Assembly (NCBI GenBank): GCA_900541935.1
Contig: UQLZ01000001.1
Coordinates: forward strand, 19,019 to 83,018
DNA from: an uncultured Prevotellaceae bacterium
GTDB lineage: Bacteria; Bacteroidota; Bacteroidia; Bacteroidales; Muribaculaceae
Length of the DNA stretch: 64,000 bases
Direction: 5' to 3'
In this document: positions 6,894 through 34,614 of the stretch, in pieces
How the letters are laid out: each line of letters starts with the position of its first letter
How positions within the stretch are numbered: position 1 is the stretch's first letter
Notes under the pieces: generated by a model
What the model was told of the DNA's origin: nothing
Seen by the model: only the letters and a program-made list of their open reading frames with translations
Database searches by the model: none
Position numbers and translations under genes: made by a program

Positions 6894-8315
6894 ATGAGGA
6901 GTTTATTAATAATATTTTCGGTGTTGTTCATTGTGGGGTTTGCTTCGTGCATTGAAGATGATTTCACAACGAGCAGTAGTGATGTGCTTGAGTTTTCGAC
7001 AGATACACTCAGTTTTGATACTGTTTTTACAGGTGAAGTAACAGCGACAAAGCGTTTTTTGGTTTATAACCGTCACAAAAAACAATTGAATATAGAGCGC
7101 ATATCGCTTGCTGGAGCACCTGAAGGGGCAAAATTCTATCTTAATGTTGACGGAAGGAGTGGCGAGGCTTTCCAAGATGTTGAGGTTCGAGGAGAAGACA
7201 GTATTTATGTTTTTGTTGAGGCTCGAGTTGAATCAAATAATGAAGATTTGCCGTTTGATGTATTTGATAATCTGAATTTTGTTACAAATGGTGTTGTTCA
7301 GACTGTTGTTTTGCGAGCTGCAGGGCAGAATGCTAATACTCTACGCAGCGTTCGCATTACGGAAAATACGACATTCGACGGAGAGCGTCCGTATAGGATT
7401 ATGGATAGCGTTATTGTAGAGGAAGGGGCTACTCTGACGATTCCAGCGGGAAAGACTGTATATTTCCATGATAAGGCTTGGCTGGAAGTGCGTGGAAAAC
7501 TTATTGCCAAAGGAAGTGTTGATGAAAATATTATTTTCCGTGCAGACCGTCTTGACAAGGTTGCCGGGTCTATCCCCTTTGAACTGATGGCAGGCCAATG
7601 GGGAGGAATAAGGCTGGCAAAAGAAAGTTTCGGCAATGAGTTTGCCTATGTTTACATGCATGGGTCGTCGTTTGGCTTGGAGGCTGATTCTTGCGGAGTA
7701 ACGGATAAGTCAAAGATAAATTTGTTTAATTCAGTACTGCATAATTCATCAGGTTCGGTTTTAAAGGCATCGCATTGTAAAATAGATGCTGTTGGCTGTG
7801 AGTTTTCAGATTGTAAGAATGGAGTTTTGGATTTAACAGGTGGTACATATACATTTAATAACTGTACTTTTGCCAATTATTATCTTTTTGATGCAATAAC
7901 AAGTCCTATTCTAACACTGTCGTATCTGATGCCTGATGATAAGATTTATTCGAATCCGCTAATGGAGGCAGATTTTAATAACTGTGTTGTTTATGGCAAT
8001 TCTTCAGATATCAGTCATGGGGACCTTTTGGGAAGTAAGGTGAGGTTGCGTAATTGCCTGCTTCGCTCACGTGGAGAGGATGACGCTAATTTTATCAACT
8101 GTGTATGGGGTGAAGATCCTCTATATTATACAGTTAGAGAAGACTATATCTTTGATTACCGCCTACGCAACGAAAGCCCGGCAATCGGTAAAGGTTCAAT
8201 CGGTTTGATGCCGGAGAGTGCGCGATATGATTTTTACGGCAACGACCGCAAGTCAGCGACTGGCCTTGATTTGGGGGCTTATGTATGGATTGAGAAGAAA
8301 GAAGAAAAGAAATGA
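6894..8315 (+). CDS. hypothetical lipoprotein, possible right-handed beta-helix repeats
   Basis: Lipobox ..FIVGFASC. Repeated N-C-x motifs (NNCTFANYY, NNCVVYGN, LRNCLLRS) suggest parallel beta-helix repeats. First ATG is at 6894; the upstream M call is a TTG. Confidence 0.6.
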   Translation: MRSLLIIFSVLFIVGFASCIEDDFTTSSSDVLEFSTDTLSFDTVFTGEVTATKRFLVYNRHKKQLNIERISLAGAPEGAKFYLNVDGRSGEAFQDVEVRGEDSIYVFVEARVESNNEDLPFDVFDNLNFVTNGVVQTVVLRAAGQNANTLRSVRITENTTFDGERPYRIMDSVIVEEGATLTIPAGKTVYFHDKAWLEVRGKLIAKGSVDENIIFRADRLDKVAGSIPFELMAGQWGGIRLAKESFGNEFAYVYMHGSSFGLEADSCGVTDKSKINLFNSVLHNSSGSVLKASHCKIDAVGCEFSDCKNGVLDLTGGTYTFNNCTFANYYLFDAITSPILTLSYLMPDDKIYSNPLMEADFNNCVVYGNSSDISHGDLLGSKVRLRNCLLRSRGEDDANFINCVWGEDPLYYTVREDYIFDYRLRNESPAIGKGSIGLMPESARYDFYGNDRKSATGLDLGAYVWIEKKEEKK

Positions 8316-19123: not shown

Positions 19124-20857
19124 ATGAGAAGAATTGGAAGAATAATTGTATCTGTGGTGTTGCTTCTATGCGGAATGCTGCAGGTAGAAGCGGTTGCTCC
19201 AAAGTATGAGCATCGCAGTATGTGGGTAGCGACTGTTTCCAATATTGACTGGCCGACCAGCCGTGGCTCAAGTCAGGCTGCGGCAGAGATTCAGAAGAAA
19301 GAGATGATTCGTATTCTGGATGATCTCCAGAGGGCGAATTTTAACGCCGTGAATTTTCAGATACGCCCGATGGCAGATGCTTTGTATAATTCTGCGTATG
19401 AGCCGTGGTCGTATTATGTATCCGGGCAAAGAGGCAAGGCTCCAGCCTATGATCCGTTGGCTTTTGTTGTGGAAGAGTGTCACAAGCGTGGCCTTGAATG
19501 CTATGGTTGGGTTAATCCGCTTCGCTTTTCCAATGGCTCCAAGTATGGTACGCCAAATGATGTTCAGATGCAGAATGACGGGTGGATAATCTCTCACGGT
19601 GGCAAAATGATTATGAATCCTGCTTTACCGGCAGTTCGCCAGCGAGTCGTTGACGTATGTAAGGATATTCTTTCAAAATATGATATAGATGGTCTCGTCT
19701 TTGATGACTATTTCTACCCGAGTGGTATCCCTACCAATTCCAGTGCAGGGGATTATAATCAGTGGAAGGCTTCCGGTACGTGAGATTTTGGAGACTGGCG
19801 TCGTGCGAATGTCAATACTCTTATTAAAGAAGTTTATGAAATGATTCAGTCATATAAACCTTATGTCAGATTTGGTATGAGTCCACGCGGTATTGCTTGT
19901 ACGGATGCTTCTGTGGCTGAGTCGCATGGCGTTGACCGTTGCCTTTCTGGTTATGATTCGCAATATACTCAGATCTTCTGCGATCCTGTTCAATGGTATG
20001 AGGATCGTTCAATTGACTTTATGTCGCCTCAAATCTATTGGGCTCGCGGTTATAATCTCGGTGACTTTTCTATCTTATGTCCCTGGTGGGCAAAAGTGGC
20101 CAAAAAGTTCGGGCGCCATTTCTATACTTCACACAGCCTTGAGTACTTCAAGGATTCAAACAAGACTACCCGTGAGCAGGATTTTGCCGGGATGGCAGCC
20201 CAGGCGCAGATGAATAGAGACGAGTCGCTTGACGGGGCTCCGGGGGCAGTTTTCTATTCATATACTTGTCCAGGAGCGAGAACGGAAGATGGAAAGGATT
20301 TCTTTGACTATATGCGTGTCAATGCATTTGAGACAAAGGCTCTTCAGCCGGCAATGACATGGAAGAACGCTCCAACACAGGGTACAGTTCAAGGGTTGCG
20401 AGTTTCTAATGGCAATTTAACTTGGGAAAAGGTTGAAAATGTTAGATATGCCGTTTATTTGCTACCTAAAAATTCTGAGCATTCCGCAAAGGGTTTGACA
20501 GCGCAAAATCTGAAGGCTCACACCTATTATAATATATATACTATACCGGAGGGTTGTGAGGATTGTGAATTTGCTGTTACTATTGTTGACAGATATGGCA
20601 ATGAGTATGAAGCGGCGTGGCTTTCTCTTTCTTCCGGAGGCGTTGAAGACGTAGAGGAGGAAACTGTTGAAGTGGCTGTAGGGCAAGACGGCGTTTCATT
20701 CAGCAGCTGCGTTGATGCGTCGCTCTATGATGTATCCGGCAGGTTGCTTGTAAAGGTTGAGGATTCCTGCTTTATGCCTGTTGGTAGTTATTGTGGGGTG
20801 GCTGTTCTTAAGTATAAAGAAGGTGATTCTGTTAAAACCAAAAAGTTGGTTTTTTAA
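19124..20857 (+). pseudogene. GHL10-family (glycoside-hydrolase-like 10, PF02638-type) secreted protein with T9SS C-terminal domain, interrupted by an in-frame TGA at 19781-19783
   Basis: The two ORFs (19076..19783, 19841..20857) share one frame. Across the stop the protein reads ..DYNQWKASGT*DFGDWRRANVN.., which aligns with the intact paralogs ..GGGTLSQADWRRENVN.. with Leu at the stop position. Signal peptide present. The C-terminus looks like a Por tail. Confidence 0.7.
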
Positions 20858-21190
20858 GATAGTGTCCCAAAATAAAATAGGAGAACCGTGCAGGTTTAAA
20901 AATGTGTTTATAATATTTAATTATTCTTTATATCATCAAAAAAAAGTCATAAAGAATTATGTAATTAAAAAAAAAGATGTAGTTTTGTATGAATTTAGTT
21001 GAATAAAAGTATTCTCGATGCGAAACTGTAAAGAACAAAGGTTCAGCGGTTTAACAAAGAATTGGCAAAGCGGTGTTTTATTTGTTAAAATTTGGCTTTT
21101 ATGTGACTAAATTTATGACAAGGAGTGTTAAAACAAATATAAGCCTAATATAAACTAAAAACCTTGAACATAAACAAACAAAAAGTAATT

Positions 21191-24100
21191 ATGAGAAAAC
21201 AGTTATTGCTTCTGTTATTTTCCCTCTTTGCGGTTGTGGGTTATGCTCGCACTGTATCGGGTGTTGTTACTTCAGCTTCAGACAAGGAGCCATTGATTGG
21301 CGCAACAGTCAAAGTTGTAGGAACTCCGCGCGCTACAGCCACCGATTTTGACGGAAAATATACAATCGAAGCCGGGGACAATGATGTCCTGGAGGTTTCT
21401 TACATCGGTATGACAGCATCCAAGATTAAAGTTGGAGGTCGCGATGTCGTGAATGTAGAGTTGCAAGAGAACTCACAGGTTCTTGACGAAGTCGTAGTAA
21501 CAGCGATGGGTCAGACTCAAGAAAAGAAGAAATTGAACTTCGCGGTTCAGTCATTGGATTCAGATGACGTAACAGCAGGTAGCTCTGCTAACTTTGCAAA
21601 CAGTTTGCAAGGTAAGGTGTCTGGTTTGCAGGTATCAGCAGGCGGTAGTTCACCAAACTCATCAACACAGGTTATTATCCGTGCGATTTCATCAATCAAC
21701 CCGGCACAAAGTAACGAGCCGTTGATTATTATTGACGGTATGCCAGTTCGTGGTGCAGGTACAAGCCTTGGTGACCTTAACCCTAACGACATTGAGAACA
21801 TGAGTGTCTTGAAGGGTGCTGCAGCATCTGCCCTTTATGGTCAGGAAGCAGCAAACGGCGTTATCATGATTACAACAAAGAAAGGTCAAGTTGGTCAGAT
21901 TAAGGTGACAGCGCAAGGCAGTTGGGAAATTAACACAACAATGCGTGAGCCAAAATTGCAAGATCAATTTGTTGGCGGTACTGCTGGCTTCTATAAGGAG
22001 AATTCAGTTGGTGGTTGGGGCCCATATTTGAAAGAAGGAGATCGCGTTTACGACAACCTTGGCAACTTCCTCGGAACAGGTTTCATGCAGAAGTATGACT
22101 TGTCTATTTCTGGTGGTAGCGAAAAATTCAGCGCTTATGCATCAGCAGGTTATATGAATAACGAAGGTGTTGTTCCAAATGACTTCAGAAACCGTTTGAA
22201 CGTTTTTGTAAAGGGTGAATACAATCCTTCAAAGCAAGTTTCAATTCAATTGTCAACAAACTTTATCAATAGCAAGAGCCGTGGTTTCGGTAACTCAATG
22301 TCAACAATCTATGGTTGGTCAATCAACCGTGATATGGCAGATTATGTAACAAAAGAGGGCCGTCCAAACTGGTCAAACCGTTACGATAACTGGGATGTTT
22401 TGTTGGATGATCAAAAGATTGATGCAGTTGTTTCTCCATACTTCGGAAGATATATGGACAAGTCAGAAACGCAATCTACTCGTATGATCATTAACGGTCA
22501 AATTAAGTATGAGCCAATCAAGAACCTTGTATTTACAGGAAAATTGGGTTATGAGAAGAGCTTCTCAACATACGAGTCTTATAGCGTTCCACGCTTTGTA
22601 GACAGCGATTTTAAAGATCCAAACAACTCAGCATTTGCAGACTATAAGTATAAATTTGGTGCGTTTACGTTCCAGCCATCAAATAATACACAGTTTACAG
22701 CACAAATCTTAGGTACATATAATGTGACATTTGCAGATGATTATACATTGAATATTCTTGCTGGTGCAGATTATAAGGAAAGCAATGGTGCTGAAGCTTC
22801 TCTTGCTGGTATGGAGTACCAACTTGATGGAGACTTCTATTCATTTATGAATACAAACCCTATCTTGTACTCTACACCTCACCCTGATTATCCAATTTCA
22901 TTGTATCACTCAAGCAGAAACAAGTTTGGATATTTCGGAGAACTTCGTTTTGACTATAGGGGTATGGCACAATTGTCAGTAACAGCACGTTATGACGGTT
23001 CATCAACATTGAAACAAGTTGACTGTACATACTTCTACCCATCTGTAACTGGTGGTATCATTTTCTCAGAACTATTCAAACTTCAAAATGACTGGTTCTC
23101 TTACGGTAAGATCCGTGGTAACTGGGCGAAGGTAGGTAAAGATGCACCTGGATACCGCTTCCAAAAAGCATTTAAGAACTGGGAAGTATTCCCTGACGGT
23201 GGTTGGGGTATTGATGCAACAGCTGCACCTGCAATTATGCTAGAGCCAGAGATGACAAACTCTTGGGAAGTTGGTGCTGACTTGCGTTTCTTCGATTCAC
23301 GCACTCGTTTGGACGTTGCATGGTACTCAACAACAGTTGATAACCAAATCGTACAGGTACGCGTGTCTCCAGCATCAGGTACGATTTTACAAACACGTAA
23401 TGAGGGTTCTGTAGAAAATAAGGGTCTTGAATTGACACTTAGCCAGGATATCCTCCGTATGAAGGATTTCTCATGGACAGCAACAGCAAACTTCTCATTC
23501 AACCGCGGTAAGGTGAAATCATTGCCAGAAGATGTTTCTCAATTGGCAGGAACACAATATGGTGATATCTATACAGCAGCATATCTCGGACAATCAACAA
23601 CAGGTTTGTCAGGTAAGGATTATGAAAGAACACCAGACGGACAAATAATTGTTAACCAGGATGGTTATCCTGTAATTAGTGCTGTTAAGACAAATTACAT
23701 CGGTAACCGCGAACCAGACTTCTTGTTAGGTTTGGGTTCAACATTCACATGGAAAGACCTTTCAGTTAGTTTCTTGATTGACGGCCGTTGCGGTGGTGAT
23801 GTAGTAAACGTAACACGTCGTGGTTTGGTAGGAAACGGTATGGAAAATCTTCTTACAAAATACCGTAACCACGAAGTTGTAGTAAACGGTGTTGTAAAAC
23901 AACCAGACGGATCATACGCTCCTAACAAGACTCCAGTATTGTTTGATAGTAAATTTATTAGCGACTACTATAGTTCAGTATCATCAAACTTTATAGAAGA
24001 CGGTTCTTATATCCGTTTGAGCCACTTGACAATTGGTTATGACTTCTCTAAGTTGCTTGCAAAGAACTGCCCAGTCAAGGGCTTGAAGTTAACAGCAACA

Positions 24101-24250
24101 GGCCGTAACTTATTCTTGCTAACCAAGTACACAGGTTCAGATCCACAAATCCTTGGCGGAAATGGTGGTGGCACAGGTTCTGCCGGTGTCGATAACTATA
24201 GTGTACCTTCAACACGCAGTTTCAACTTCACTCTTAGTGCAACTTTCTAA
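21191..24250 (+). CDS. susC: SusC/RagA-family TonB-dependent outer-membrane transporter
   Basis: Signal peptide, CarboxypepD_reg-like N-terminus (TVSGVVTSASDKEPLIGATVKVVGT), TonB box, plug plus 22-strand barrel length, C-terminal F. Followed by susD. Confidence 0.9.
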   Translation: MRKQLLLLLFSLFAVVGYARTVSGVVTSASDKEPLIGATVKVVGTPRATATDFDGKYTIEAGDNDVLEVSYIGMTASKIKVGGRDVVNVELQENSQVLDEVVVTAMGQTQEKKKLNFAVQSLDSDDVTAGSSANFANSLQGKVSGLQVSAGGSSPNSSTQVIIRAISSINPAQSNEPLIIIDGMPVRGAGTSLGDLNPNDIENMSVLKGAAASALYGQEAANGVIMITTKKGQVGQIKVTAQGSWEINTTMREPKLQDQFVGGTAGFYKENSVGGWGPYLKEGDRVYDNLGNFLGTGFMQKYDLSISGGSEKFSAYASAGYMNNEGVVPNDFRNRLNVFVKGEYNPSKQVSIQLSTNFINSKSRGFGNSMSTIYGWSINRDMADYVTKEGRPNWSNRYDNWDVLLDDQKIDAVVSPYFGRYMDKSETQSTRMIINGQIKYEPIKNLVFTGKLGYEKSFSTYESYSVPRFVDSDFKDPNNSAFADYKYKFGAFTFQPSNNTQFTAQILGTYNVTFADDYTLNILAGADYKESNGAEASLAGMEYQLDGDFYSFMNTNPILYSTPHPDYPISLYHSSRNKFGYFGELRFDYRGMAQLSVTARYDGSSTLKQVDCTYFYPSVTGGIIFSELFKLQNDWFSYGKIRGNWAKVGKDAPGYRFQKAFKNWEVFPDGGWGIDATAAPAIMLEPEMTNSWEVGADLRFFDSRTRLDVAWYSTTVDNQIVQVRVSPASGTILQTRNEGSVENKGLELTLSQDILRMKDFSWTATANFSFNRGKVKSLPEDVSQLAGTQYGDIYTAAYLGQSTTGLSGKDYERTPDGQIIVNQDGYPVISAVKTNYIGNREPDFLLGLGSTFTWKDLSVSFLIDGRCGGDVVNVTRRGLVGNGMENLLTKYRNHEVVVNGVVKQPDGSYAPNKTPVLFDSKFISDYYSSVSSNFIEDGSYIRLSHLTIGYDFSKLLAKNCPVKGLKLTATGRNLFLLTKYTGSDPQILGGNGGGTGSAGVDNYSVPSTRSFNFTLSATF

Positions 24251-24261
24251 AAACAGAAAAT

Positions 24262-26181
24262 ATGAACAAACTGAAATTTATAGCAATGTCGTTACTGCTT
24301 GGAGGACTTGGACTTGCAGGTACAACAAGTTGTGTCGATATTCTTGATGATAATGAAAATCCGGACAAGCCGTCAACAATCAGTCCGGAGGTTGGTTTGC
24401 CTGTAGTAGTTTTCTATTCTGCGCAGACCAATTATGACCACGCTGAATACAATATCTACTTGTCACAATGCTTGACAACAACAGGTATGTCGCAAACAGG
24501 TTCTTATGGCTATAAGAGCGGATGGGAGATGTTGACAATGAACCGTCACCCGCAGTGGCGTCGTCACTTCTATGACTTGGGTGAGAATATTAATATTCTT
24601 CTTAAGAATGCAGAAGATTACAAGACTCCTAACTATGGTTTGATAGCACGTACAATTCGTTTGATGTCAACACAATTGACAACAGATGCATTTGGTGACA
24701 TGCCACGTTCAGAGGCATATAAGTCAAATTCACCGAAGTATGACTCTCAGGCAAGTATTTATAAATGGATGCTTGAAGAAGCAGATGCTTTGATTGCAGA
24801 CTATGAAAATCCTGAGTTGACAGAATGTCCGACAAACAGGATTATAACAATCAAGCAAGACCGTGTTTATGGCGGTGACTTGAAGAAATGGAAAGGTTTG
24901 GTATATGCTATTAAGGCACGTATCCTTTTGCGTAATATTCCTAACATTGATACATCAGCAAAGACTTGCCAGGCTATCTATGATGCTGCAGCAAAGGCAG
25001 TTGAGATTTGGAGAAGCGATGCAACATACGGTGACTTTTTCGGATGTGAGCCACGTTACAAATTCGACGGAGGTTCTCAGCAGAAGAATGCACCATGGAG
25101 TATTGCTCAACCAATTATCAACTCTTGGGAGTCACGTAAGAACTTGTTGACAGAAGCCGTACCTTCTAAGTTTATGCTTGAAGACTGTATGGGTGTCTTT
25201 AAAAAGAGTGATGAGGTTAACGGAGGAGCATTCGTGGTAAACCGCGGATGGGCGGATGACCCACGTGCAATTTTGTTGTTCACCCCTCGTACAGGTCCAG
25301 CATCTGCAACAAATACAACAGCAAAAATAAAACTTCGCTGGTTGGAAAATAATATTGGTTGCGGTACATCATTTAAGGCTGCTAACTTCCCAGATCTTTA
25401 CTCAGGTGCATACGCTTATGACACTAAAGCATACGTTCCTTTGTTTACAATGGAAGAACTTTACTTTATCCAAGCAGAGGCTAAGTACTGGATGGGTGAT
25501 AAGGTAACAGCATGTCAGTTGGCAAAAGATGCTACACGTGCAAATATCGAGCGTCACCTTGCAGCATTCCAGGAAAAGTATCCAGATGTTATGTATCCTG
25601 GTAATGTTACAGACAAGGGTTTCCAAAAATTTGACCCGAGAGAGGTTTCAAAAGAAGGTGTTTTCACTTTGTCAGAAGCACGTTGGGATGCAACAGTAGA
25701 AGCATTCCTTAATAATGCGGACCAAGAGGGTGAAAAACTTGCTCCAGTAAAAGGTGTTACAGATTCAAAGACTCCGGGTAACCATCGTTGGTACTTCAAT
25801 GAGTCGGAGTTCTCATTGAGTGACTTGATGATGCAGAAGTATGTGGCAATGTACATGCAACCAGAGCAATGGACTGATATGCGTCGTTATCACTTTAGCA
25901 ACGAGCGTAACAAATATGGTATTGGTCCTAACCAAGAAATCGTATATGAGGGACTTCGCCGTCCGTATAACTTGTATGCGCCATATTGGGTAGATGGTTT
26001 GACAGAGGAGCAAAAGGAAAATACTTGGATCCAACGTATTAACTATGACCCAGAAACAGAGGAAAGATACAACAAGGCTGAGTTGGAAAGACTTGGTGCT
26101 TATAAGAACTATAAGTGGTTGCAGAAGCCGATGATCTGGGCTGAGAAAGCAGGAGTTCGTACATCATTGACAGCAGAATAA
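24262..26181 (+). CDS. susD: SusD/RagB-family nutrient-binding outer-membrane lipoprotein
   Basis: Lipobox GTTSC. 639 aa, TPR-like SusD architecture, immediately downstream of susC. Confidence 0.85.
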   Translation: MNKLKFIAMSLLLGGLGLAGTTSCVDILDDNENPDKPSTISPEVGLPVVVFYSAQTNYDHAEYNIYLSQCLTTTGMSQTGSYGYKSGWEMLTMNRHPQWRRHFYDLGENINILLKNAEDYKTPNYGLIARTIRLMSTQLTTDAFGDMPRSEAYKSNSPKYDSQASIYKWMLEEADALIADYENPELTECPTNRIITIKQDRVYGGDLKKWKGLVYAIKARILLRNIPNIDTSAKTCQAIYDAAAKAVEIWRSDATYGDFFGCEPRYKFDGGSQQKNAPWSIAQPIINSWESRKNLLTEAVPSKFMLEDCMGVFKKSDEVNGGAFVVNRGWADDPRAILLFTPRTGPASATNTTAKIKLRWLENNIGCGTSFKAANFPDLYSGAYAYDTKAYVPLFTMEELYFIQAEAKYWMGDKVTACQLAKDATRANIERHLAAFQEKYPDVMYPGNVTDKGFQKFDPREVSKEGVFTLSEARWDATVEAFLNNADQEGEKLAPVKGVTDSKTPGNHRWYFNESEFSLSDLMMQKYVAMYMQPEQWTDMRRYHFSNERNKYGIGPNQEIVYEGLRRPYNLYAPYWVDGLTEEQKENTWIQRINYDPETEERYNKAELERLGAYKNYKWLQKPMIWAEKAGVRTSLTAE

Positions 26182-26200
26182 TTTAAAACAGATAATTATT

Positions 26201-27262
26201 ATGAAATTACAATATAAATTAGGGGCCATTGCATTATCAGTAGTTGCTTTGTCATCCTGTGAAATGAACGATCCATATGGAGACGTTGTAGAGGTTGGCC
26301 AGCCGGTGCCAACAGTTTCATGGGAACTTGGAGGATCAGTAGCAACTGCAGGTGACTCTGTTTCATTCCTTGGAAAGTATTATGCTGAAAAGGGAAGAAC
26401 AATTGATCATTCAGAAGTGTGGGCTCTTGTTTCAAAGGAAGAATCATGTGAGGCAACATTGAGGTTGTCATCTTCATTGGCATATACCAAGTCAGTTGGT
26501 TTTAGTGATACAATTCGCATGAGCCAAAAGGTTAGTGAGTATCCTCATTCACAAGCAGAGTGGGATGGCTATGAGTTCGTATTGAACGCAAAGTTCCCAA
26601 CTTCACAAACATTGAAAACCTTGATTTGGCAGAATATCCCGAAATGGGATGCTGATAAATTTGCAGCATATTTCCCACAAGGATTCAAAGAGGAGTTTGT
26701 TGAGCATGTGCTTGGTGAAATGGTAAAGGATGCATGTTATAATGACCTCCGTCACGTATATATCAACTATGATTTTTCAGTAGACCAATTCCAGTCAGTT
26801 ATTGCTAAGCATGCAGAATTAGATGCTGCTATTCTTAACAAACTAGCGTTGGTAGACGCTGGTGAGAAATCAGATGCATGGTATACAGATGTAGAGAAGG
26901 TGGTTGGCAAATACTATAAGACAGTAGATGCAGAAGGAAAGACTGTATATAATGAAGTAGGTCTCGATTTCAATGATCCGAACATTCCAGTATATAATGT
27001 TTACGAGTCTTCAGCATGGGTTTTCTGTCGTTATGACGATGACCAAGGTAAGATTTTGACATCAGTTCGTCCTGAGTATATTCCGTTCTTTAAGGATTTG
27101 ATTACTCTTATTCCTTTCCAAGATTGGATTTACAATGTTGGCGAAAAGCAATATGCAGTATCATTCAAGAGATCTTATGGATTAGGTGTTGTATTCAAGG
27201 TTTATGATACTGATGGCAATGTTGGTTATACAACAGAACCCAAAAAGGTTAGTCTTAACTAA
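26201..27262 (+). CDS. hypothetical surface lipoprotein (SusE/F-position gene)
   Basis: Lipobox ALSSCEMND. Positioned after susD. Confidence 0.6.
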   Translation: MKLQYKLGAIALSVVALSSCEMNDPYGDVVEVGQPVPTVSWELGGSVATAGDSVSFLGKYYAEKGRTIDHSEVWALVSKEESCEATLRLSSSLAYTKSVGFSDTIRMSQKVSEYPHSQAEWDGYEFVLNAKFPTSQTLKTLIWQNIPKWDADKFAAYFPQGFKEEFVEHVLGEMVKDACYNDLRHVYINYDFSVDQFQSVIAKHAELDAAILNKLALVDAGEKSDAWYTDVEKVVGKYYKTVDAEGKTVYNEVGLDFNDPNIPVYNVYESSAWVFCRYDDDQGKILTSVRPEYIPFFKDLITLIPFQDWIYNVGEKQYAVSFKRSYGLGVVFKVYDTDGNVGYTTEPKKVSLN

Positions 27263-27276
27263 TTAATTGAGAAAAA

Positions 27277-28989
27277 ATGAAGAAGTTATTAAAAAATATT
27301 TGTTTATTCAGCGCTTTGCTTTTCGCTTTCTCTTCATGTGTTGAGAGTGATCCGGAGTACACAGATTTCCCATCAAAGGATGTTGATTTTAGGTATTCAG
27401 TTGCACCTAACGCCGAAGGCGAAGTAGAGTTTGCGTTGGATTATTATGTTGTATCTACAATTCAATTTACAAATACTTCTGCAAAGTCAGGTAAATTGAC
27501 TTGGGATTTTGGTGACGGTCAGACTTCGAACGAGGCAAATCCGTTGCATAAGTATGAAAAAGCAGGTACTTACAAGGTTGCATTGACAGTAGAAGGTGTA
27601 GGTACTCGCACATATCCTATTATGATTTATGATATCGCACCAGTCCTTTCAATTAAGGATAAGAGTGCAGATGTTGTATTGGCTAATGAGGTGACAGTTG
27701 ACTTGGGAATTTTCCTACCGAATCCGGAAAAGTTGAAAGTCGAATATGAATTGTTCTTCCCAGAAGGTGCAATTAATAAAGATGGCGCAGAGATTACAGA
27801 ACCTATCAAAATCATCGAGGAAAACGGTAAGGTTCAATTCCCGGAAGGCATCAAGTTCCGTAACATTGGATCACAGAAGGTTCTTGTAAAGACAACATTC
27901 GATGTTGATGGAAACCCAAGAAAATTGGAAGATTCTTACGTAAATGTTCAAGTTGGTTCGCCAATCGAGGCTCCTACACTATATTATGCAGTATATGGAG
28001 GCAATATTATGGCTTATAAGTTATTGGATGAAACAAAACTTCCAGAAGGAACAAAGAATCTTCCATTCGATATGGGAGTAAATAGTGGAACAACACCAGT
28101 ATGTCTTGTATTCGCTGACGGTGTTGGTGAGGAAGGTCAATCAGGAACAATTTATATCCTTGACCCAGGAAAACAATACACTTATATTAATGACGAAAAT
28201 AATGTCTTGGGCGATGGTAAGATTTCTGTTATGAATCCTGACGGAACAGGTGTTAATGTATTTGTTACAAATGTTGGTCAAGGAGCGTTCTTTGACCCAT
28301 TCTATGGTGCCGTTGACGGAAATAACTTGATTTACTCAGACCGCAACACTGGTCTGCGCAAGACAGACCTTAAGGCTCGTGGTGAGAAAGAGAAGAATGA
28401 TTACCTTGTTCAAAATGACTATCTTGCATACTATAGCCGCACATCTTTGGCATACGGTGCAATCAGTTGTACAATCTTGAAGGACAGTAAGGGTAACTAC
28501 TGGTGGGGCAAGTGCTTCAACGGTAATGGTATCTTCCGTTTCAAGGCTGAAAACATTGGCTACTACAAGGATAACAAGGTACTTCCAAATAAGGTTATCT
28601 TGGAGAATAGAAACTTGAAGTCATTTATGATAGACGAAGGAAGAAGCGGTTTGTATGTATTCCGTACAAAAGATGCAGATACTGGTTTCTATGCTTATAC
28701 ACTTCCAGGTGACTTTGAAGATGTTTCTGCACCAGTTGCAAAATTCAGCATAGAAGCAGATCCTATGAATACATCAGCAGATGAAGGTTTGTATGTTACA
28801 CAAATGGCTCTTGATAAAGAAACCGGTTATGTTTACTTTGGATTCAACAAGGCAGCGACAGACAATTCAGCTTATGCAACAGGTATGCTTTACTACAATC
28901 CAGACAGCAAGAAGTTGCACTCTGTAGATGTAATTAAGGATAAGATTCTTGGCGTTGTTGTCAACGATCATAAGACAAATTTATTCTAA
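27277..28989 (+). CDS. hypothetical lipoprotein with PKD domain
   Basis: Lipobox FSSCVESD. PKD signature TWDFGDGQTSNEANPLHKYEKAGTYKVALTV. Confidence 0.65.
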   Translation: MKKLLKNICLFSALLFAFSSCVESDPEYTDFPSKDVDFRYSVAPNAEGEVEFALDYYVVSTIQFTNTSAKSGKLTWDFGDGQTSNEANPLHKYEKAGTYKVALTVEGVGTRTYPIMIYDIAPVLSIKDKSADVVLANEVTVDLGIFLPNPEKLKVEYELFFPEGAINKDGAEITEPIKIIEENGKVQFPEGIKFRNIGSQKVLVKTTFDVDGNPRKLEDSYVNVQVGSPIEAPTLYYAVYGGNIMAYKLLDETKLPEGTKNLPFDMGVNSGTTPVCLVFADGVGEEGQSGTIYILDPGKQYTYINDENNVLGDGKISVMNPDGTGVNVFVTNVGQGAFFDPFYGAVDGNNLIYSDRNTGLRKTDLKARGEKEKNDYLVQNDYLAYYSRTSLAYGAISCTILKDSKGNYWWGKCFNGNGIFRFKAENIGYYKDNKVLPNKVILENRNLKSFMIDEGRSGLYVFRTKDADTGFYAYTLPGDFEDVSAPVAKFSIEADPMNTSADEGLYVTQMALDKETGYVYFGFNKAATDNSAYATGMLYYNPDSKKLHSVDVIKDKILGVVVNDHKTNLF

Positions 28990-29018
28990 ACATCAGTTTA
29001 ATATAAATTCATGATTTT

Positions 29019-29066
29019 ACAAGAGCCACACTTCTCCATAAGGATGGTTGTGTGGCTCTTGTTTTA
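29019..29066 (+). terminator. strong hairpin (13-bp perfect stem ACAAGAGCCACAC/GTGTGGCTCTTGT) followed by TTTT; intra-locus terminator or attenuator
   Basis: Perfect inverted repeat 30 nt after the PKD-lipoprotein stop. It overlaps the GTG-extended ORF start of the next gene. Confidence 0.5.
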
Positions 29067-29072
29067 ATAGAT

Positions 29073-31763
29073 ATGATGAAAACTAATTTATTCCGATATA
29101 CAATACTCCTTTTATTAGTGATAGCGTCGTTGCCGGCTTCCGGCAATAAGCGAGAGCAGCGAGCAGCGTGGATGTCAGGCTTTGTCAGTGACTGGCCATC
29201 ATCTGCAATCACGACAGCAAATGCGGAAACGCACAAGCGTCAATGCCAAGAGCATCTTGATACGATGCAAAGGGCGAATTTTACAACAGTCTATTATCAC
29301 GTCCGCACAATGTGCGATGCTATGTATGACTCAAAATATGAGCCATGGTCGAGTTACGTTTCCGGAACCAGAGGAAAAGCACCGGCATTTGACCCGTTTG
29401 CTTATATCCTTGAGCAGGCGCATGCCCGCGGTTTGGAGGTTTATGCGTGGTTGAACCCGTACAGGTATATCAATTCCAGTTATTCCAGTGGATATGGAAA
29501 TGCCGGGGGAGACAAGAATTATGAGAACAGTCATCCAGAATGGCTTATAGAATGGAATAACGGAGGAACAACATGGACAATTCTAAATCCTGCTTTACCC
29601 GAGGTTAAGCAGAGAATTGTAGATGTTATCGCCGATATAATGAGCAAATACGATATCGATGGTGTCATTTTCGATGACTATTTCTATCAGAATGGTCTTC
29701 CAGAAAGTTATGATGCTGCCGATTACACAAAATATACAGAAGGCGGAGGCACGCTTTCACAAGCCGATTGGCGTAGAGAGAACGTTAACGATATGGTAAG
29801 AATGGTAAATGCCTATATCAAATCCACAAAGCCGTGGGTTCGTTTTGGTATTGGTCCAGCCGGCGTAGCGGGAAAACCAGAAGTTACAGCCAAGTACGGA
29901 TTGCCTGCTTGTCCAGGAAGTGACTGGCAGTATAATGGCATCAGTTCAGATCCTTTGGCATGGCTTGCGGAAGGCTCGATAGATTTTATCTCTCCACAGG
30001 TCTATTGGAATATAGGAAATGAAAATTCGGATTTTGCGAATATCACTCCATGGTGGTATATGGCTTGCAAGAAGTTTAACCGCCATTGCTATATTAGCCA
30101 AAGCCTTACAGGAAATTTCGGAAAGGCGGGCAGTCTTGATGAGTTTGTCAACCAAGTTGAGATGATACGAGCATCAAACGAGCAGGAGGCTTGCGGGTAT
30201 GTGTTCTTCCCGTGGAGGTTCTGCAAAAACTATACAAAGGAAATTAATGGAGTTAAGACAAATATTCCGACCTATTTTCGACGCAATGTCTATGCGCATA
30301 AGGCACTTTCTCCCGTTGTTACTTGGATGCCGTCAAAAGCATTTGGAAAAATAAGCAATTTGACCAGAAATGGAAGAAAGTTGACATGGACAGGAGAAGA
30401 TAATGTCAAGTATTCTATCTATGCTGTTCCAAAGAGCGTCAAGCAGTCTGAATTCCGCAAGGAGCAGGAGTATTTGATGGGAATCAGTTATGAAGCGTCA
30501 TACAGTATTCCAGAGACAAATCCGAAATACCCGGAGCAAGGCGTTTCAGATGCTGATTTGGACAAATATAATTACGCCGTTTGTGTTCTTGACCGCTATG
30601 GGAATGAGTATGCTGCGTTCTTTACAGATCCGGAAGCGGCAGATGCAAAGGCTCCGGTATTGACTTATCCTACAAATGGAGTTGAAACGCCGTCGTTCTT
30701 TAACTTTAAGTGGGAAGGCAATGGCCAGAATTATGAGTTGGTAGTTGCAGAGGATTCAGAATTGAAAAATATTGTATATAAAACAGAATTGTCAGACCAG
30801 TATAAGTTTTCGGCAGATGTCTATGGCTTTGAGGCAGGAAAAACATATTATTGGAGAGTCAGTTCAAGGGCAAACAATGTTGGAGAGTTGAAATCAGAAG
30901 TCCGTTCCTTTAAGGTAGATGAGTTTAGAGTAAAAACACCTATTGAAGGAAGTGATGCTGTTGCAGACAATCCAGAAATATCCTGGTCAGTTGTTGAAGG
31001 GGCAGATAAATACAAACTTGAAATATCCAATTCTAAATTATTTAAGAAAGTTACTGTTGTCAGAGAGGTAAAAGAGGCTAAGTGCCAAATTGAGCCTTAT
31101 CTCTTGTCAGGAAATACCACTTATTATGTTAGAGTAAGCACAGAATTCAATGGCAGGTCGTTTGTTACGAAAGAGTCAAGTTTTAGGACAGTATTGATAG
31201 AAGGAGTAAAGCCCGAAATTGTCAGACCTTTAGAAAATGGTCAGACATTGTACTCAAACAATACAGTAGGTGTAGCCCCACAGAGGGGAATCACTGTCTT
31301 GAAGATAATGATTAGTCCAAATGAAAAATTCTCCGCACGTTCATCTTACAACGGCACATTTACGCAGTTTGAGACTTCCACGCCAGAGTTGTCAACAATC
31401 AAGGTTGGTTCGTCTAAACTTGCAGATGGCAAGACTTACTATGTCCGTGCACAGGTTTCTTATATTGGAGCCGAGGGAGGAACAGTGACCAGTGAATGGT
31501 CAGATGTAAAGACTTTTGTTTACAGTTCAGAGCAGGGTGGCGTTTCTTCAATTACTGGAGCAGCACTCCATTATGCAGATGGCATTCTTATGACGGGAAT
31601 GCCGGGTGCTTCAGTGGCTGTTTACGGCATTTCGGGTGCATTGGCAGGAAGTTATACATCTGACAGAGCCGGCAATGCTGATTTGACAAGCCTGCCTTCA
31701 GGTGTCTATGTTGCCAAAGTTATAGATGGCATAAAAGTTGAGAATATTAAAATAGTAAAATAA
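29073..31763 (+). CDS. GHL10-family putative glycosidase with FN3-like repeats and T9SS C-terminal sorting domain
   Basis: Signal peptide. TIM-barrel-like GHL10 core (YYHVRTMCDAMYDSKYEPWSSYVSGTRG...DIDGVIFDDYFY...FISPQVYW), about four FN3/Ig-like repeats, and a C-terminal Por tail (..GVYVAKVIDGIKVENIKIVK). Confidence 0.75.
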   Translation: MMKTNLFRYTILLLLVIASLPASGNKREQRAAWMSGFVSDWPSSAITTANAETHKRQCQEHLDTMQRANFTTVYYHVRTMCDAMYDSKYEPWSSYVSGTRGKAPAFDPFAYILEQAHARGLEVYAWLNPYRYINSSYSSGYGNAGGDKNYENSHPEWLIEWNNGGTTWTILNPALPEVKQRIVDVIADIMSKYDIDGVIFDDYFYQNGLPESYDAADYTKYTEGGGTLSQADWRRENVNDMVRMVNAYIKSTKPWVRFGIGPAGVAGKPEVTAKYGLPACPGSDWQYNGISSDPLAWLAEGSIDFISPQVYWNIGNENSDFANITPWWYMACKKFNRHCYISQSLTGNFGKAGSLDEFVNQVEMIRASNEQEACGYVFFPWRFCKNYTKEINGVKTNIPTYFRRNVYAHKALSPVVTWMPSKAFGKISNLTRNGRKLTWTGEDNVKYSIYAVPKSVKQSEFRKEQEYLMGISYEASYSIPETNPKYPEQGVSDADLDKYNYAVCVLDRYGNEYAAFFTDPEAADAKAPVLTYPTNGVETPSFFNFKWEGNGQNYELVVAEDSELKNIVYKTELSDQYKFSADVYGFEAGKTYYWRVSSRANNVGELKSEVRSFKVDEFRVKTPIEGSDAVADNPEISWSVVEGADKYKLEISNSKLFKKVTVVREVKEAKCQIEPYLLSGNTTYYVRVSTEFNGRSFVTKESSFRTVLIEGVKPEIVRPLENGQTLYSNNTVGVAPQRGITVLKIMISPNEKFSARSSYNGTFTQFETSTPELSTIKVGSSKLADGKTYYVRAQVSYIGAEGGTVTSEWSDVKTFVYSSEQGGVSSITGAALHYADGILMTGMPGASVAVYGISGALAGSYTSDRAGNADLTSLPSGVYVAKVIDGIKVENIKIVK

Positions 31764-31779
31764 TAAAACCATTAGAAAA

Positions 31780-34464
31780 ATGAAGAAAATTTGTCTATTC
31801 TTAATGACAGCCGTTCTCTTCCTTGCCAATTCGTTGGAAACATCGGCGGTTAAGAGAGAGCAGCGGGCAACGTGGATGTCAGCATTTACGCAGTGCTGGC
31901 CAACAAGTCCTATTACGGCATCAACAGCGAATACACATAAGCGTATTTGTATCAACAACCTTGACTCATTGCAGAAGAATAACATGACAACAATTTATTA
32001 TCATGTTAGGACAATGTGTGACGCAATGTATGATTCAAAGTATGAACCTTGGTCAAGTTATGTTTCAGGCACTCGTGGTGAAGCCCCAATTTTTGACCCG
32101 TTTGCATATCTTATCGAGAATGCTCATGCCCGTGGTATTGAGGTATATGCATGGTTGAACCCGTATCGTTATCTTAATAGCATCTATGCTGATAACTATG
32201 GCTCTGAGGGAGGTGACAAAAACTATGAAAACAGTCATCCGGATTGGTTGATAGAATGGAAAAACGGCGACAGAATGTGGACAATTCTTAATCCGGCATT
32301 GCCAGAGGTTAAGCAGCGCATAGTTGACGTTGTAGCAGATATTATGTCAAAATATGATATTGACGGTATTGTTTTTGATGACTATTTCTATCAGAAAGGT
32401 TTGCCATTGAGTTATGATGCTGCAGATTACGAAAAGTACAAGGCTGCAGGCGGAACCTTGTCACAAGGCGATTGGCGACGTGAAAACGTTAACGATATGG
32501 TCCGCAAGGTTAATGCCTACATCAAGTCAACAAAGCCATGGGTTCGCTTTGGTATCGGTCCTGCCGGCGTTGCTTGCGGTACTAACTTGAAAGCCGTTGC
32601 CGACAAGTATGGAATCGAGCCGTGTCCTGGTAGCGACTGGCAGTATAATGAAATTTATTCCGACCCTATCGCATGGTATAAAGAAGGTTCTATCGACTTT
32701 ATGTCACCGCAGGTTTATTGGGTTATTAACGGAACTAACGACTATAGAGCAGTCTCTACATGGTGGTATAAGGTAGCGGCAAAATTCAACCGTCACTGCT
32801 ATGTTAGTCAGGATTTGTCAAATTCTGCAAGTGGAGTAGCATCATTCAGCGAATTCCTCAATGAGATTGATGTTACTCGTACAGCCGATGAGATGGATGC
32901 TCCTGGAACGGTTTATTTCCCATGGAAGAGCCTCAAGGCAAGAACGCAGAGAGTAAATCGCAAAAATCAGTTCTTGTTGAATTATTTGCGATATAATGCT
33001 TTTCAATATAAAGCCTTAACTCCAGCCGCAACATGGATTAATACAGAGTGCCCTGGACAAGTATCTTCAGTTAAGCGTAATGGCAGAAGTCTTACTTGGA
33101 ATGGACCGTCAAATGTCAAATACACAATCTATGCAGTGCCAAAGGATATTGCATTTGCAAACTTCCACAAGGAAGAAGAGTACTTGAGGGCAATATCATA
33201 TACATCGTCATGGGAAATACCGGCATACGACAGCAATTATGCTAATTTCGGCATATCAGATGAAGATTTGGATAAGTATAACTACGCAGTCTGTGTGCTT
33301 GACCGTTATGGCAAAGAGTATAGTGCTGTTTTTGAAGGGGCAACAGTCGTTCCCTCAGAGAAGCCTGTAATAACATATCCAGCCAATGGAAACAAGGCGG
33401 CGGCCGTCTTTGATTTTAAGTGGACAGGCAAGGCTTCAACATTTGAAATTGCGATAGCGACAGATGCCGCAATGAAAAATATTCTGGTTAAGAGAGAAGT
33501 AAGCGGCAATTATGTAAAGTCGTCAGATGTTTATGATTTTGAGGCAGAAAAGACTTACTACTGCACAATTACAGCAAGAGACAATAATGCAACTGAGACA
33601 CGTTCTGACGTAGTTTCATTTACAGTAGATGTATTGCGTATCACTTCACCATTAAATGAAGCAACAGGCTGTGAAGATAATCTTACAATTTCATGGTCAA
33701 CAGCAACACCTGGAGCCGTTCTACGCATTGCTTCAGATTCTTCAATGGAAACTGTTGTCTATGAGGCAAAGACGGATAAGGATTCTCATAAGATACCTGA
33801 ATTTACATTGTGTGGCAATTTAACATATTATGCCCAGGTAGTTGCAGGAGAGATGGCAACGAAAGTTGTTAGTTTCACTGTTAAGAATATGGTTCCTTCA
33901 GTTCCTGTATTTACAAATCCAACAGTCAACGGTCAGACAATTTATTCAAATCATCGCATTTGCTTGGAGCCGGAACGTGGAATCTATTTGACAAGAATAG
34001 AGGTTTGTGCAACTCAGTCTTTTGGAACTCGTTCTTCCTATATATTCAACGGCAAGGACTTTACATTCATGACACCAAATTTATCAGAGGTAAGGGTTGG
34101 TCCGTCAACAAGTTCTCCACTTCTTACTGACGGAAAGACATATTATGTTCGTGCCAAGTACACTTATTATAACGAAGCAGGCAAGTCAGCAGATACCGAG
34201 TATTCACCTGTAATGTCATTTGTTTATAATAAGGACGCGGGCATCCAGTCACTTGAAGTTGCCGATGTTATAATTACAAATGATGTATTGCAGACAGAGG
34301 AAGCCGATGCTTCAGTAAATGTATTTACGCTTGACGGCAAACTTGTAATGACAACAGTTACAGATTCAAATGGCGACGCATCGCTTGAAGAACTGGAAAG
34401 CGGTTCATATATTGTAACAGTAGTTGTTGGAGGTAAGAAGCATTCTTTGAAGTATATCAAGTAA
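31780..34464 (+). CDS. GHL10-family putative glycosidase with FN3-like repeats and T9SS C-terminal sorting domain (tandem paralog)
   Basis: Roughly 70% aa identity to the preceding gene across the catalytic core. Same domain order. C-terminal Por tail (..GSYIVTVVVGGKKHSLKYIK). Confidence 0.75.
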   Translation: MKKICLFLMTAVLFLANSLETSAVKREQRATWMSAFTQCWPTSPITASTANTHKRICINNLDSLQKNNMTTIYYHVRTMCDAMYDSKYEPWSSYVSGTRGEAPIFDPFAYLIENAHARGIEVYAWLNPYRYLNSIYADNYGSEGGDKNYENSHPDWLIEWKNGDRMWTILNPALPEVKQRIVDVVADIMSKYDIDGIVFDDYFYQKGLPLSYDAADYEKYKAAGGTLSQGDWRRENVNDMVRKVNAYIKSTKPWVRFGIGPAGVACGTNLKAVADKYGIEPCPGSDWQYNEIYSDPIAWYKEGSIDFMSPQVYWVINGTNDYRAVSTWWYKVAAKFNRHCYVSQDLSNSASGVASFSEFLNEIDVTRTADEMDAPGTVYFPWKSLKARTQRVNRKNQFLLNYLRYNAFQYKALTPAATWINTECPGQVSSVKRNGRSLTWNGPSNVKYTIYAVPKDIAFANFHKEEEYLRAISYTSSWEIPAYDSNYANFGISDEDLDKYNYAVCVLDRYGKEYSAVFEGATVVPSEKPVITYPANGNKAAAVFDFKWTGKASTFEIAIATDAAMKNILVKREVSGNYVKSSDVYDFEAEKTYYCTITARDNNATETRSDVVSFTVDVLRITSPLNEATGCEDNLTISWSTATPGAVLRIASDSSMETVVYEAKTDKDSHKIPEFTLCGNLTYYAQVVAGEMATKVVSFTVKNMVPSVPVFTNPTVNGQTIYSNHRICLEPERGIYLTRIEVCATQSFGTRSSYIFNGKDFTFMTPNLSEVRVGPSTSSPLLTDGKTYYVRAKYTYYNEAGKSADTEYSPVMSFVYNKDAGIQSLEVADVIITNDVLQTEEADASVNVFTLDGKLVMTTVTDSNGDASLEELESGSYIVTVVVGGKKHSLKYIK

Positions 34465-34486
34465 TAAGAATATCATATCATTAGCT

Positions 34487-34532
34487 GCGCCAGTCTCTAC
34501 GGATAACCGTATAAGGCTGGCGTACTTTTTTT
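34487..34532 (+). terminator. rho-independent terminator after the GHL10 tandem
   Basis: GCGCCAG...CTGGCG stem followed by TACTTTTTTT. Confidence 0.55.
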
Positions 34533-34614
34533 GAGGGTTTTAAGTTAAAAAGGGTTTTTCTCTGTCAGAATAGAGATTAAATAACTATCTTCGCATTTTG
34601 AAGAGAATTAAAGG

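Follow-up and report, generated by a model that had tools for sequence, protein, structure and literature searches.

Positions 19124 to 34532 of the window (the whole 64-kb stretch of DNA that was analyzed) carry, on the forward strand and in this order, a GHL10 paralog, susC, susD, the genes of two surface lipoproteins, a hairpin, a tandem pair of GHL10 genes, and a terminator. With profile HMM searches and translations of the window, we recovered the gene content and gene order given in a preliminary description of this DNA. The genes are co-directional and closely packed, and the locus lies between housekeeping genes: upstream, those of an RND efflux system and of tRNA-Val; downstream, rpoN, purE, and ispG. 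Its features, preceded by one gene of the type IX secretion system (T9SS) that is included for context only, are as follows.

4903..5976, minus strand: PorQ, T9SS (NF033711, 367 bits; cut-off, 220)
19124..20857, plus strand: GHL10 paralog, 577 codons, with PF02638 matches in both halves
20858..21190, plus strand: AT-rich intergenic region upstream of susC (sequence inspection)
21191..24250, plus strand: SusC/RagA-type TonB-dependent transporter, 1019 aa from ATG (TIGR04056, 658 bits)
24262..26181, plus strand: SusD-like outer-membrane lipoprotein, 639 aa (PF12771, 86 bits; PF12741, 69 bits)
26201..27262, plus strand: p353, surface lipoprotein of 353 aa in SusE/F position (no Pfam or NCBIfam match)
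27277..28989, plus strand: p570, surface lipoprotein of 570 aa with an N-terminal PKD domain (PF18911, 46 bits, residues 60 to 106)
29019..29066, plus strand: intra-operon hairpin (29019..29062) with a GC-rich stem of 13 bp and UUUU behind it (-30.5 kcal/mol; z, -4.35)
29073..31763, plus strand: GHL10_A, 896 aa from ATG (PF02638, 182.3 bits; TIGR04183 C-terminal domain [CTD], 23.4 bits)
31780..34464, plus strand: GHL10_B, 894 aa, tandem paralog of GHL10_A (PF02638, 184.1 bits; TIGR04183, 29.3 bits)
34487..34532, plus strand: intrinsic terminator at the operon end, a GC-rich stem followed by U7

The adjoining susC-like and susD-like genes, the latter starting 11 nt downstream of the former, make the locus Sus-like. 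SusC contains the CarboxypepD_reg, Plug, and TonB_dep_Rec barrel domains of Pfam and bears the TIGR04057 signature, and its orthologs at the same position in related loci are 57 to 83% identical to it; an STN domain, reported earlier as lacking, was indeed not matched by the Pfam profiles. The SusD lipobox reads ...TTSC. The operon promoter presumably lies in the AT-rich region upstream of susC, where a promoter search returned generic sigma-70-like matches only and no Rfam family was matched; across the entire locus, no riboswitch or leader family of Rfam was matched either. With rpoN as the first gene beyond the locus, and with sigma-54 activators encoded after the locus in two relatives (L007 and L008), the region upstream of susC was also checked by eye for a sigma-54 promoter, but no GG-N10-GC match was seen, and we consider the adjacency of rpoN to be coincidental. 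No HTCS, SusR, or ECF sigma/anti-sigma gene was found between approximately 19 kb upstream and approximately 29 kb downstream of the locus, which extends to the flanks the earlier statement that the locus itself holds no regulator; neither a linked sensor nor an STN domain accompanies the transporter.

Both lipoproteins that had been placed in SusE/F position, one of them with a PKD domain, were confirmed. Their lipobox cysteines are conserved, with Cys21 of p570 invariant, and orthologs of p570 occur in 70 related loci. Their likeness to SusE/F consists of locus position and lipoprotein signal only, PF16411 (SusE/SusF) matching neither protein, and NCBIfam holds no name for p353, p570, or the GHL10 domains. 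For p353, no relatives were detectable outside Muribaculaceae, and by sequence comparison it constitutes a Muribaculaceae-specific family; its structural model consists of two beta-sandwiches with a helical insert between them, and the fold matches of this model were generic Ig/FN3 sandwiches only. We presume that p353 binds glycan. In p570, the PKD domain is followed by some 450 strand-rich residues to which no domain was assigned, and in a profile search of the PDB the PKD part alone found matches.

The intralocus hairpin, likewise part of the preliminary description, was not equaled in folding by any of 200 shuffled sequences. Lying where the transport/binding genes give way to the enzyme genes, it probably acts as a partial terminator or stabilizes RNA. 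In roughly 40 of about 65 relatives examined (counted by eye, not by script), this junction likewise holds a strong hairpin, of unrelated sequence. A GTG at position 29052 falls inside the hairpin, and the ATG at position 29073 is the likely start of GHL10_A. At the end of the operon, the folded stretch containing the terminator (34455..34620) has a z score of -3.81.

As claimed earlier, GHL10-family proteins are the sole enzymes that Pfam and NCBIfam profiles link to this importer, and no CAZy-type glycosidase was recognizable by profile search in or beside the locus; a 2017 report states that GHL10 was not yet in CAZy (PMC5765458). GHL10_A and GHL10_B, alike in architecture and 64% identical in their catalytic domains, match PF02638 across the TIM barrel (profile positions 3 to 294 of 311; cut-off, 27.9 bits). 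In the AF2 model of GHL10_A, numbered by the 903-aa reading from the GTG at 29052, a signal peptide is followed by a GHL10 TIM barrel (residues ~35 to 415) with the (beta/alpha)8 fold of the Cwp19 type, five beta-sandwiches, and a type-A CTD of the T9SS. Of the GHL10-FN3-CTD architecture proposed before, the GHL10 domain and the CTD are upheld, but no Pfam FN3 model reached its threshold. Both proteins combine a Sec signal peptide with a type-A CTD (TIGR04183/PF18962; cut-off for TIGR04183, 23 bits), the features of T9SS cargo; the presence of a T9SS in this organism is supported by the porQ gene.

Cwp19 of Clostridioides difficile, whose structure has been solved and which is a lytic transglycosylase of peptidoglycan (PMC6016235, PMC5765458), was the only sequence match in the PDB (E, 1.3e-65), and the window enzymes are 36 to 39% identical to it; the second-best fold match was the poly-GlcNAc hydrolase domain of PgaB. 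Of the 13 active-site residues of Cwp19 listed in its description (PMC5765458), 9 are kept (W36, W127, R132, D195, D196, Y197, Q295, Y297, and F367), the adjacent Asp-Asp pair among them, while the remaining 4 (Q77, S250, G328, and S368) are changed, with Q77H and G328S fixed in the clade of this polysaccharide-utilization locus (PUL) and S250G and S368P frequent. The catalytic core appears to be kept, with differences at substrate-lining positions. A further family member, DigH (YddW) of Escherichia coli, matches PF02638 with 453 bits and, as a divisome-localized glycosyl hydrolase, acts specifically on denuded peptidoglycan glycans (PMC12288456). The earlier remark that GHL10 has no defined substrate consequently does not hold: Cwp19 and DigH act on peptidoglycan (PMC6016235, PMC12288456), and a distant member of GHL10, DogH, has been reported to act on starch (PMC9967864).

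Three GHL10 proteins had originally been taken to be exported by the T9SS. Two are intact and have a CTD, but the third, encoded upstream of susC, is interrupted by a stop codon, and its CTD-like tail matched no CTD HMM at an E value of ≤0.01. Besides this tail, the upstream paralog comprises a signal peptide, a TIM-barrel domain, and one beta-sandwich, and its two halves match PF02638 with 136.5 and 36.2 bits. Translation places an in-frame TGA at 19781..19783 (codon 220). Since the truncated 219-aa product is encoded identically on at least five independent contigs from different samples, we regard this TGA as a real nonsense mutation, and since it interrupts the reading frame, the paralog is probably a pseudogene; in one related locus (L014), the ortholog found upstream of susC is intact. 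Recoding of the TGA was rejected because every other gene in the window uses TGA as an ordinary stop, and it is also disfavored by the position of the stop, in a variable loop.

Although a comparison across Prevotellaceae had been suggested, the relatives of this locus are found in Muribaculaceae (Limisoma, Sodaliphilus), and the taxonomic placement given here is based on them. Among these relatives, 55 of 56 genomes (those whose loci had at least 8.2 kb of upstream sequence) have all five genes of the cassette susC-susD-p353-PKD570-GHL10, with its order kept at protein identities of 40 to 57%, and it is nearly universal across Muribaculaceae of human, rodent, poultry, and ruminant guts. In the closest species representative, identity amounts to 57% in GHL10 and 83% in SusC, and tandem GHL10 duplicates are confined to the closest clade (L003, L004, L010, L013, and L016). 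The genes upstream of orthologous loci vary; these loci often add a GH20 beta-hexosaminidase, one to three NAGPA-type GlcNAc-1-phosphodiester glycosidases, CotH, CutC, and a C10 protease, and none of these accessory genes (c5, NAGPA, CotH, CutC, C10, and GH20) had a tblastn match in the window. The GHL10 enzymes of Sodaliphilus have dockerins in place of T9SS CTDs. In sum, the locus is one operon-like PUL of a human-gut Muribaculaceae bacterium and the local version of a family-wide cassette. It had been conceded that the locus might prove to be common and already described: common and conserved it is, within Muribaculaceae, but our literature search found no description of a GHL10 PUL, nor of a characterized peptidoglycan PUL, and the cassette is best read as a conserved PUL for which no published characterization was found.

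The completeness of the cassette in 55 of the 56 related loci speaks for a functional linkage of its genes, and the resemblance of its only enzymes to two known peptidoglycan-cutting enzymes, Cwp19 and DigH, points to peptidoglycan. We therefore propose, with confidence that is evenly balanced, that the locus serves to cut a glycan at the cell surface, most likely that of peptidoglycan and alternatively a related HexNAc polymer, and to import the fragments through SusCD. The GHL10 enzymes would be exported by the T9SS and anchored on the cell surface, where they would cleave a polymer backbone of beta-linked N-acetylhexosamine, the likeliest target being the MurNAc-GlcNAc glycan strand of peptidoglycan shed by other gut bacteria. 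The resulting oligosaccharides would be captured by p353, p570, and SusD and imported by SusC, and genes at other places in the genome would supply the enzymes that finish their breakdown. Behind p570, the hairpin probably either reduces read-through into the enzyme genes or stabilizes the upstream transcript, in which case transporter and binding proteins would outnumber the enzymes. More tentatively, the locus may represent the first dedicated Sus-like peptidoglycan-feeding system, in which T9SS-anchored muramidases or lytic transglycosylases of GHL10, a family outside CAZy, would release glycan strands from the walls of other bacteria, and Muribaculaceae-specific surface proteins and SusCD would take these up.

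A HexNAc-containing target is favored by the GH20 and NAGPA-type enzymes of the relatives, both of which act on HexNAc; wall teichoic acids are joined to MurNAc via phosphodiester-linked GlcNAc. Several observations count against peptidoglycan as this target. The proteins of the locus showed no recognized LysM, SPOR, SH3b, or CW_binding domain, and no amidase, peptidase, MurQ, MurK, NagZ, or NamZ was found in the window. PULs are statistically depleted of the classical families that target peptidoglycan (PMC6499787), and the starch activity reported for DogH makes GHL10 a functionally mixed family (PMC9967864). Four active-site positions set the clade apart from Cwp19 and DigH, so its specificity could differ as well. 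It is possible, if rather unlikely, that the same surface GHL10 and SusCD mechanism is directed at another HexNAc glycan, be it host N-glycan or mucin, chitin, an exopolysaccharide such as poly-GlcNAc, or a phosphoglycan resembling teichoic acid. Q77H and G328S mark a separate subfamily at a distance from Cwp19, the poly-GlcNAc hydrolase domain of PgaB ranks next in fold, and the GH20, CutC, and NAGPA of the relatives would also fit foraging on host glycans such as N-glycans or mucin, while peptidoglycan-binding modules and muropeptide-processing genes are missing nearby. Yet both well-characterized close members of the family act on the peptidoglycan backbone, and a PUL directed at host glycans or chitin normally contains enzymes of CAZy families like GH18, GH20, GH29, GH33, and GH84, all five of which are absent here. 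An alpha-glucan or other HexNAc-free polymer is a far more remote candidate. It is brought into play by DogH (DR2412), annotated as GHL10 and reported to convert soluble starch to maltose, but DogH is only ~21% similar to Cwp19 (PMC9967864), whereas the window enzymes are much closer to Cwp19 and keep its Asp-Asp pair. The neighbors in relatives are, moreover, HexNAc directed. Cwp19 itself was reportedly inactive on starch, pullulan, maltose, and cyclodextrins in Benedict's assays, which counts further against alpha-glucan.

Cwp19 and DigH both act on the peptidoglycan of their producer (PMC6016235, PMC12288456), and by analogy the GHL10 proteins could be housekeeping autolysins with SusCD as an unrelated neighbor; this we consider very improbable, given the tight, co-directional genes and the order conserved in relatives, the T9SS CTDs (or dockerins in Sodaliphilus) that would place the enzymes outside the outer membrane and away from the periplasmic sacculus of the cell itself, and a 500-aa array of beta-sandwiches typical of surface glycan-degrading enzymes. 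Somewhat less improbable, though still unlikely, is a bacteriolytic weapon, with surface or released GHL10 lysing neighboring Gram-positive cells and SusCD scavenging the products. All evidence for peptidoglycan feeding applies here too, the two readings differing in ecology and not in biochemistry, and the C10 cysteine protease and phosphodiester glycosidases of relatives could strip wall polymers from intact cells; however, the locus encodes neither an immunity protein nor a toxin domain, and no system for contact-dependent delivery, and the preference of DigH for peptide-free glycans suggests debris rather than intact walls (PMC12288456).

Because PUL catalogues rest on CAZy families, a locus with GHL10 as its only enzymes has probably been entered in them as a mere susC/susD pair and escaped notice. 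Its near universality in Muribaculaceae points to a nutrient niche that is important but unassigned. Should the substrate be peptidoglycan, Bacteroidota would forage on bacterial cell wall via Sus machinery, the amount of NOD-stimulating muropeptides available to the gut could be affected, and the enzymes would offer biochemists a secreted GHL10 subfamily that is tractable to study. If the system is indeed dedicated to peptidoglycan feeding, a prevalent gut family would be a major processor of the pool of muropeptides and denuded glycans, and a new class of GH activity would be present inside PULs. If the substrate is another one, the locus still marks an uncharacterized pairing of glycan and enzyme with a clear experimental route.

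Among known systems, Cwp19 (PDB 5OQ2/5OQ3) provides the founding structure of GHL10/PF02638, the family shared with the window enzymes. However, Cwp19 is an S-layer autolysin of a Gram-positive bacterium, anchored by CWB2 repeats and directed at its own wall, whereas the window enzymes have a T9SS anchor, are encoded in a SusCD operon, carry five beta-sandwich domains, and have His, Gly, Ser, and Pro at positions Q77, S250, G328, and S368, respectively. DigH, the second PF02638 member with a demonstrated peptidoglycan-backbone substrate, is 32% identical to GHL10_A over the barrel (E, 6e-52) but is a 439-aa periplasmic lipoprotein with a role in cell division and without accessory domains or a link to a transporter. 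The C-terminal domain of PgaB (GH153), a poly-beta-1,6-GlcNAc hydrolase, is of a different family, with only 15% identity, and PgaB, unlike the window enzymes, acts within a periplasmic exopolysaccharide export system. From canonical Bacteroidota PULs, the locus differs in that none of its enzymes belongs, as far as can be determined, to a CAZy GH, PL, or CE family; that it has no exo-acting or periplasmic enzyme; that HTCS, SusR, ECF/anti-sigma, and the STN domain of SusC are all lacking; and that p353 is without detectable relatives outside Muribaculaceae. With these PULs, a comparison class that includes T9SS-linked examples such as the chitin locus of Flavobacterium johnsoniae, it shares the SusC/SusD pair, lipoproteins in SusE/F position, surface endo-acting enzymes, a co-directional operon, and an internal hairpin separating the transport genes from those of the enzymes.

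ORF listing and HMM scans established a co-directional block on the + strand and bore out the coordinates of the preliminary description.

Features of the Sus-like locus (window coordinates), with porQ added
19124..20857, + strand: GHL10 paralog (HMM scan)
21191..24250, + strand: SusC/RagA (TIGR04056, 658 bits), with CarboxypepD_reg, Plug, and barrel domains
24262..26181, + strand: SusD-like lipoprotein (HMM scan)
26201..27262, + strand: p353, a 353-aa lipoprotein without family match
27277..28989, + strand: p570, a 570-aa lipoprotein with a single PKD domain
29073..31763, + strand: GHL10_A (PF02638, 182 bits; TIGR04183, 23.4 bits)
31780..34464, + strand: GHL10_B (PF02638, 184 bits; TIGR04183, 29.3 bits)
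34487..34532, + strand: canonical intrinsic terminator, closing the block
4903..5976, - strand: PorQ (367 bits)

The HMM scan bore out that SusC carries no STN domain. SusD, p353, and p570 each have an invariant lipobox cysteine, and homologs of p353 form only 126 clusters, each unnamed or labelled Muribaculaceae, across which no Pfam domain was found. Both tandem GHL10 proteins exceed the 23-bit cutoff for the type-A sorting domain of the type IX secretion system (T9SS; TIGR04183), and the presence of a PorQ gene in the window indicates that the organism has a T9SS. Near porQ, the products of 976..2301 (- strand; a BspA-type surface protein with leucine-rich repeats, a weak T9SS C-terminal domain [CTD], and a DUF6383 tail) and 6858..8315 (+ strand; a 485-aa ORF whose sole match is a weak choice-of-anchor Q) may be additional T9SS cargo.

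The proposed GHL10-FN3-CTD architecture held for its first and last parts (PF02638 and TIGR04183), but no Pfam FN3 model scored above threshold; in the AF2 model of GHL10_A (pLDDT 78), a TIM barrel (residues ~35-415) is followed by five beta-sandwich domains, with the CTD at 838-903. Public automatic calls disagree on the start of this protein (products of 903, 895, and 817 aa); a GTG at 29052 lies inside a hairpin, and the signal peptide fits the ATG at 29073. Folding confirmed this intralocus hairpin, located between p570 and GHL10_A (29019..29062; 13-bp GC-rich stem followed by UUUU; -30.5 kcal/mol, z -4.35). Of the ~65 relatives examined, roughly 40 have a strong hairpin of unrelated sequence at this junction (a hand count from printed folds), a positional conservation that would fit a role as partial terminator or stabilizer.

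Of the three T9SS-exported GHL10 enzymes originally proposed, only two are intact. The upstream paralog is interrupted by an in-frame TGA (19781..19783, codon 220), located in a variable loop directly 5' of the conserved DWRR motif, leaving a truncated 219-aa product and a separate 338-aa ORF. Since the identical arrangement is seen in different samples, on at least five contigs, this is a real nonsense mutation, and assembly error is excluded. An intact ortholog is present upstream of susC in one related locus (L014). The C-terminal tail of the interrupted paralog looked CTD-like by eye, without HMM support.

An alignment of GHL10 homologs, used as the pattern in a scan of 185,579 species genomes, picked out 387 relatives. 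The best 80 of these were all Bacteroidales metagenome-assembled genomes of Muribaculaceae type (e.g., Candidatus Limisoma and Sodaliphilus); their sources were human, chicken, mouse, and ruminant guts. Prevotellaceae, the comparison group suggested initially, was not represented among these 80. Gene order was compared by ORF clustering and by searching these loci with the window's proteins (tblastn): susC-susD-p353-p570-GHL10 was intact in 55 of the 56 loci whose upstream sequence reaches 8.2 kb or more, with identities to the window of 57-83% (SusC), 38-67% (p353), and 39-57% (GHL10). L017 is the only true exception; in five other loci, the order looked broken in the clustering owing to ORF-calling artefacts, which the tblastn comparison resolved. 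The tandem GHL10 duplication is limited to the closest clade (L003, L004, L010, L013, and L016). The corrected picture is one of a near-universal Muribaculaceae locus with a testable substrate hypothesis.

Most other members carry accessory genes in addition to the cassette. The commonest, c5, encodes a ~460-aa secreted protein of unassigned family (one to three copies, 54 loci; e.g., L072 12467-13858 and L007 13020-14465), with no Pfam domain except the anchor. It is missing both in the window and in the tandem-GHL10 clade, as though displaced by the second GHL10 copy. NAGPA-type phosphodiester glycosidases (PF09992) were found in 38 loci and CotH in 28; more rarely, the upstream side has a gene for a GH20 beta-hexosaminidase and the downstream side genes for CutC and a C10 cysteine protease. 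The window has none of these accessory genes. As a separate observation, a type-I dockerin (PF00404) forms the C-terminal end of every secreted protein of the Sodaliphilus/rumen-type loci (L083 10001-22043; L061, L070, and L072), namely GHL10, c5, CotH, NAGPA, and a SusE/F-like protein, whereas the same position is taken by a T9SS CTD in the window (29073..34464) and in Limisoma-type relatives, making the anchor clade dependent. Sodaliphilus genomes reportedly carry 63-107 dockerins each (PMC10872696).

GHL10 had been described as having no defined substrate, which proved incorrect. The sole PDB sequence match (5OQ2; E 1.3e-65) is Cwp19 of Clostridioides difficile, a lytic transglycosylase active on peptidoglycan (PMC6016235), and E. 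coli K-12 DigH/YddW (453 bits against PF02638; 32% identity to GHL10_A, E 6e-52) degrades denuded peptidoglycan glycans (PMC12288456). Judging by the catalytic-domain alignment with Cwp19, for which putative active-site residues were given with its structure (PMC5765458), both GHL10_A and GHL10_B retain W36, W127, R132, D195, D196, Y197, Q295, Y297, and F367 but differ at Q77 (His), S250 (Gly), G328 (Ser), and S368 (Pro). The His at Q77 and Ser at G328 are fixed in all 16 homologs examined from the polysaccharide utilization locus (PUL) clade; the interrupted paralog retains Gln and Ser, like Cwp19 and DigH. A TIM barrel with an adjacent Asp-Asp pair is also found in GH84. By analogy, the pair in GHL10 would fit substrate-assisted catalysis on a 2-acetamido sugar, which might explain lytic transglycosylation as well. 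Starch hydrolysis has been reported for DogH of Deinococcus, a distant member (PMC9967864), so the family is not uniform; starch is nevertheless an unlikely target here, as that reading depends on a homolog of only about 21% similarity.

Taken with the enzymes' signal peptides and CTDs, the lipobox cysteines, the transporter pair, and the conserved synteny, all seen directly, these data suggest a model in which the T9SS would place GHL10_A and GHL10_B on the cell surface, where they would cut a HexNAc polymer in its backbone; the likeliest polymer is the glycan strand of peptidoglycan that other bacteria shed. Fragments would be bound by the lipoproteins and SusD and imported via SusC, later catabolism and regulation presumably being encoded elsewhere. 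We give even odds to a peptidoglycan glycan being cut at the surface and imported through SusCD. Both GH20 and NAGPA target HexNAc, and wall teichoic acids are joined to MurNAc through GlcNAc-1-phosphodiester bonds; the accessory-gene context therefore fits a Gram-positive cell wall, and equally some host glycans. The same system acting on a different HexNAc glycan is a less likely possibility. That the GHL10 proteins are housekeeping autolysins, finally, is unlikely, being contradicted by their extracellular anchoring and the strict synteny.

The remainder of the 64-kb window holds housekeeping genes (upstream, an RND efflux system and tRNA-Val; downstream, rpoN, purE, ispG, and others) and no other glycosidase. 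It includes a lone SU10 phage major capsid protein homolog (47146..48570, + strand; PF17236, E 2e-48) flanked by genes for an AsnC-type regulator and for adenylate kinase, with no further phage genes obvious nearby. The sigma-54 gene rpoN (34615..36108, + strand) lies directly 3' of the locus, and a sigma-54-dependent activator follows the orthologous locus in L007 (14574-15926) and L008. No sigma-54 promoter was seen by eye upstream of susC, and the adjacency of rpoN is probably coincidence.

As far as established, no CAZy-classified enzyme is present, in agreement with the preliminary description; this rests on the CAZy status of GHL10 as of 2017, when the family was explicitly outside the classification (PMC5765458). 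Within PULs, CAZy families that target peptidoglycan show a statistical depletion (PMC6499787). Our literature search found neither a GHL10 PUL nor an experimentally defined peptidoglycan PUL, but most subscription journals were outside its scope, and this absence is not proof. Unlike PULs with a linked regulator, the locus has none, as noted before; HTCS, SusR, and ECF/anti-sigma genes are all absent from the 64-kb window. It is nonetheless PUL-like in its working, and has in common with PULs the susC/susD pair by which they are recognized.
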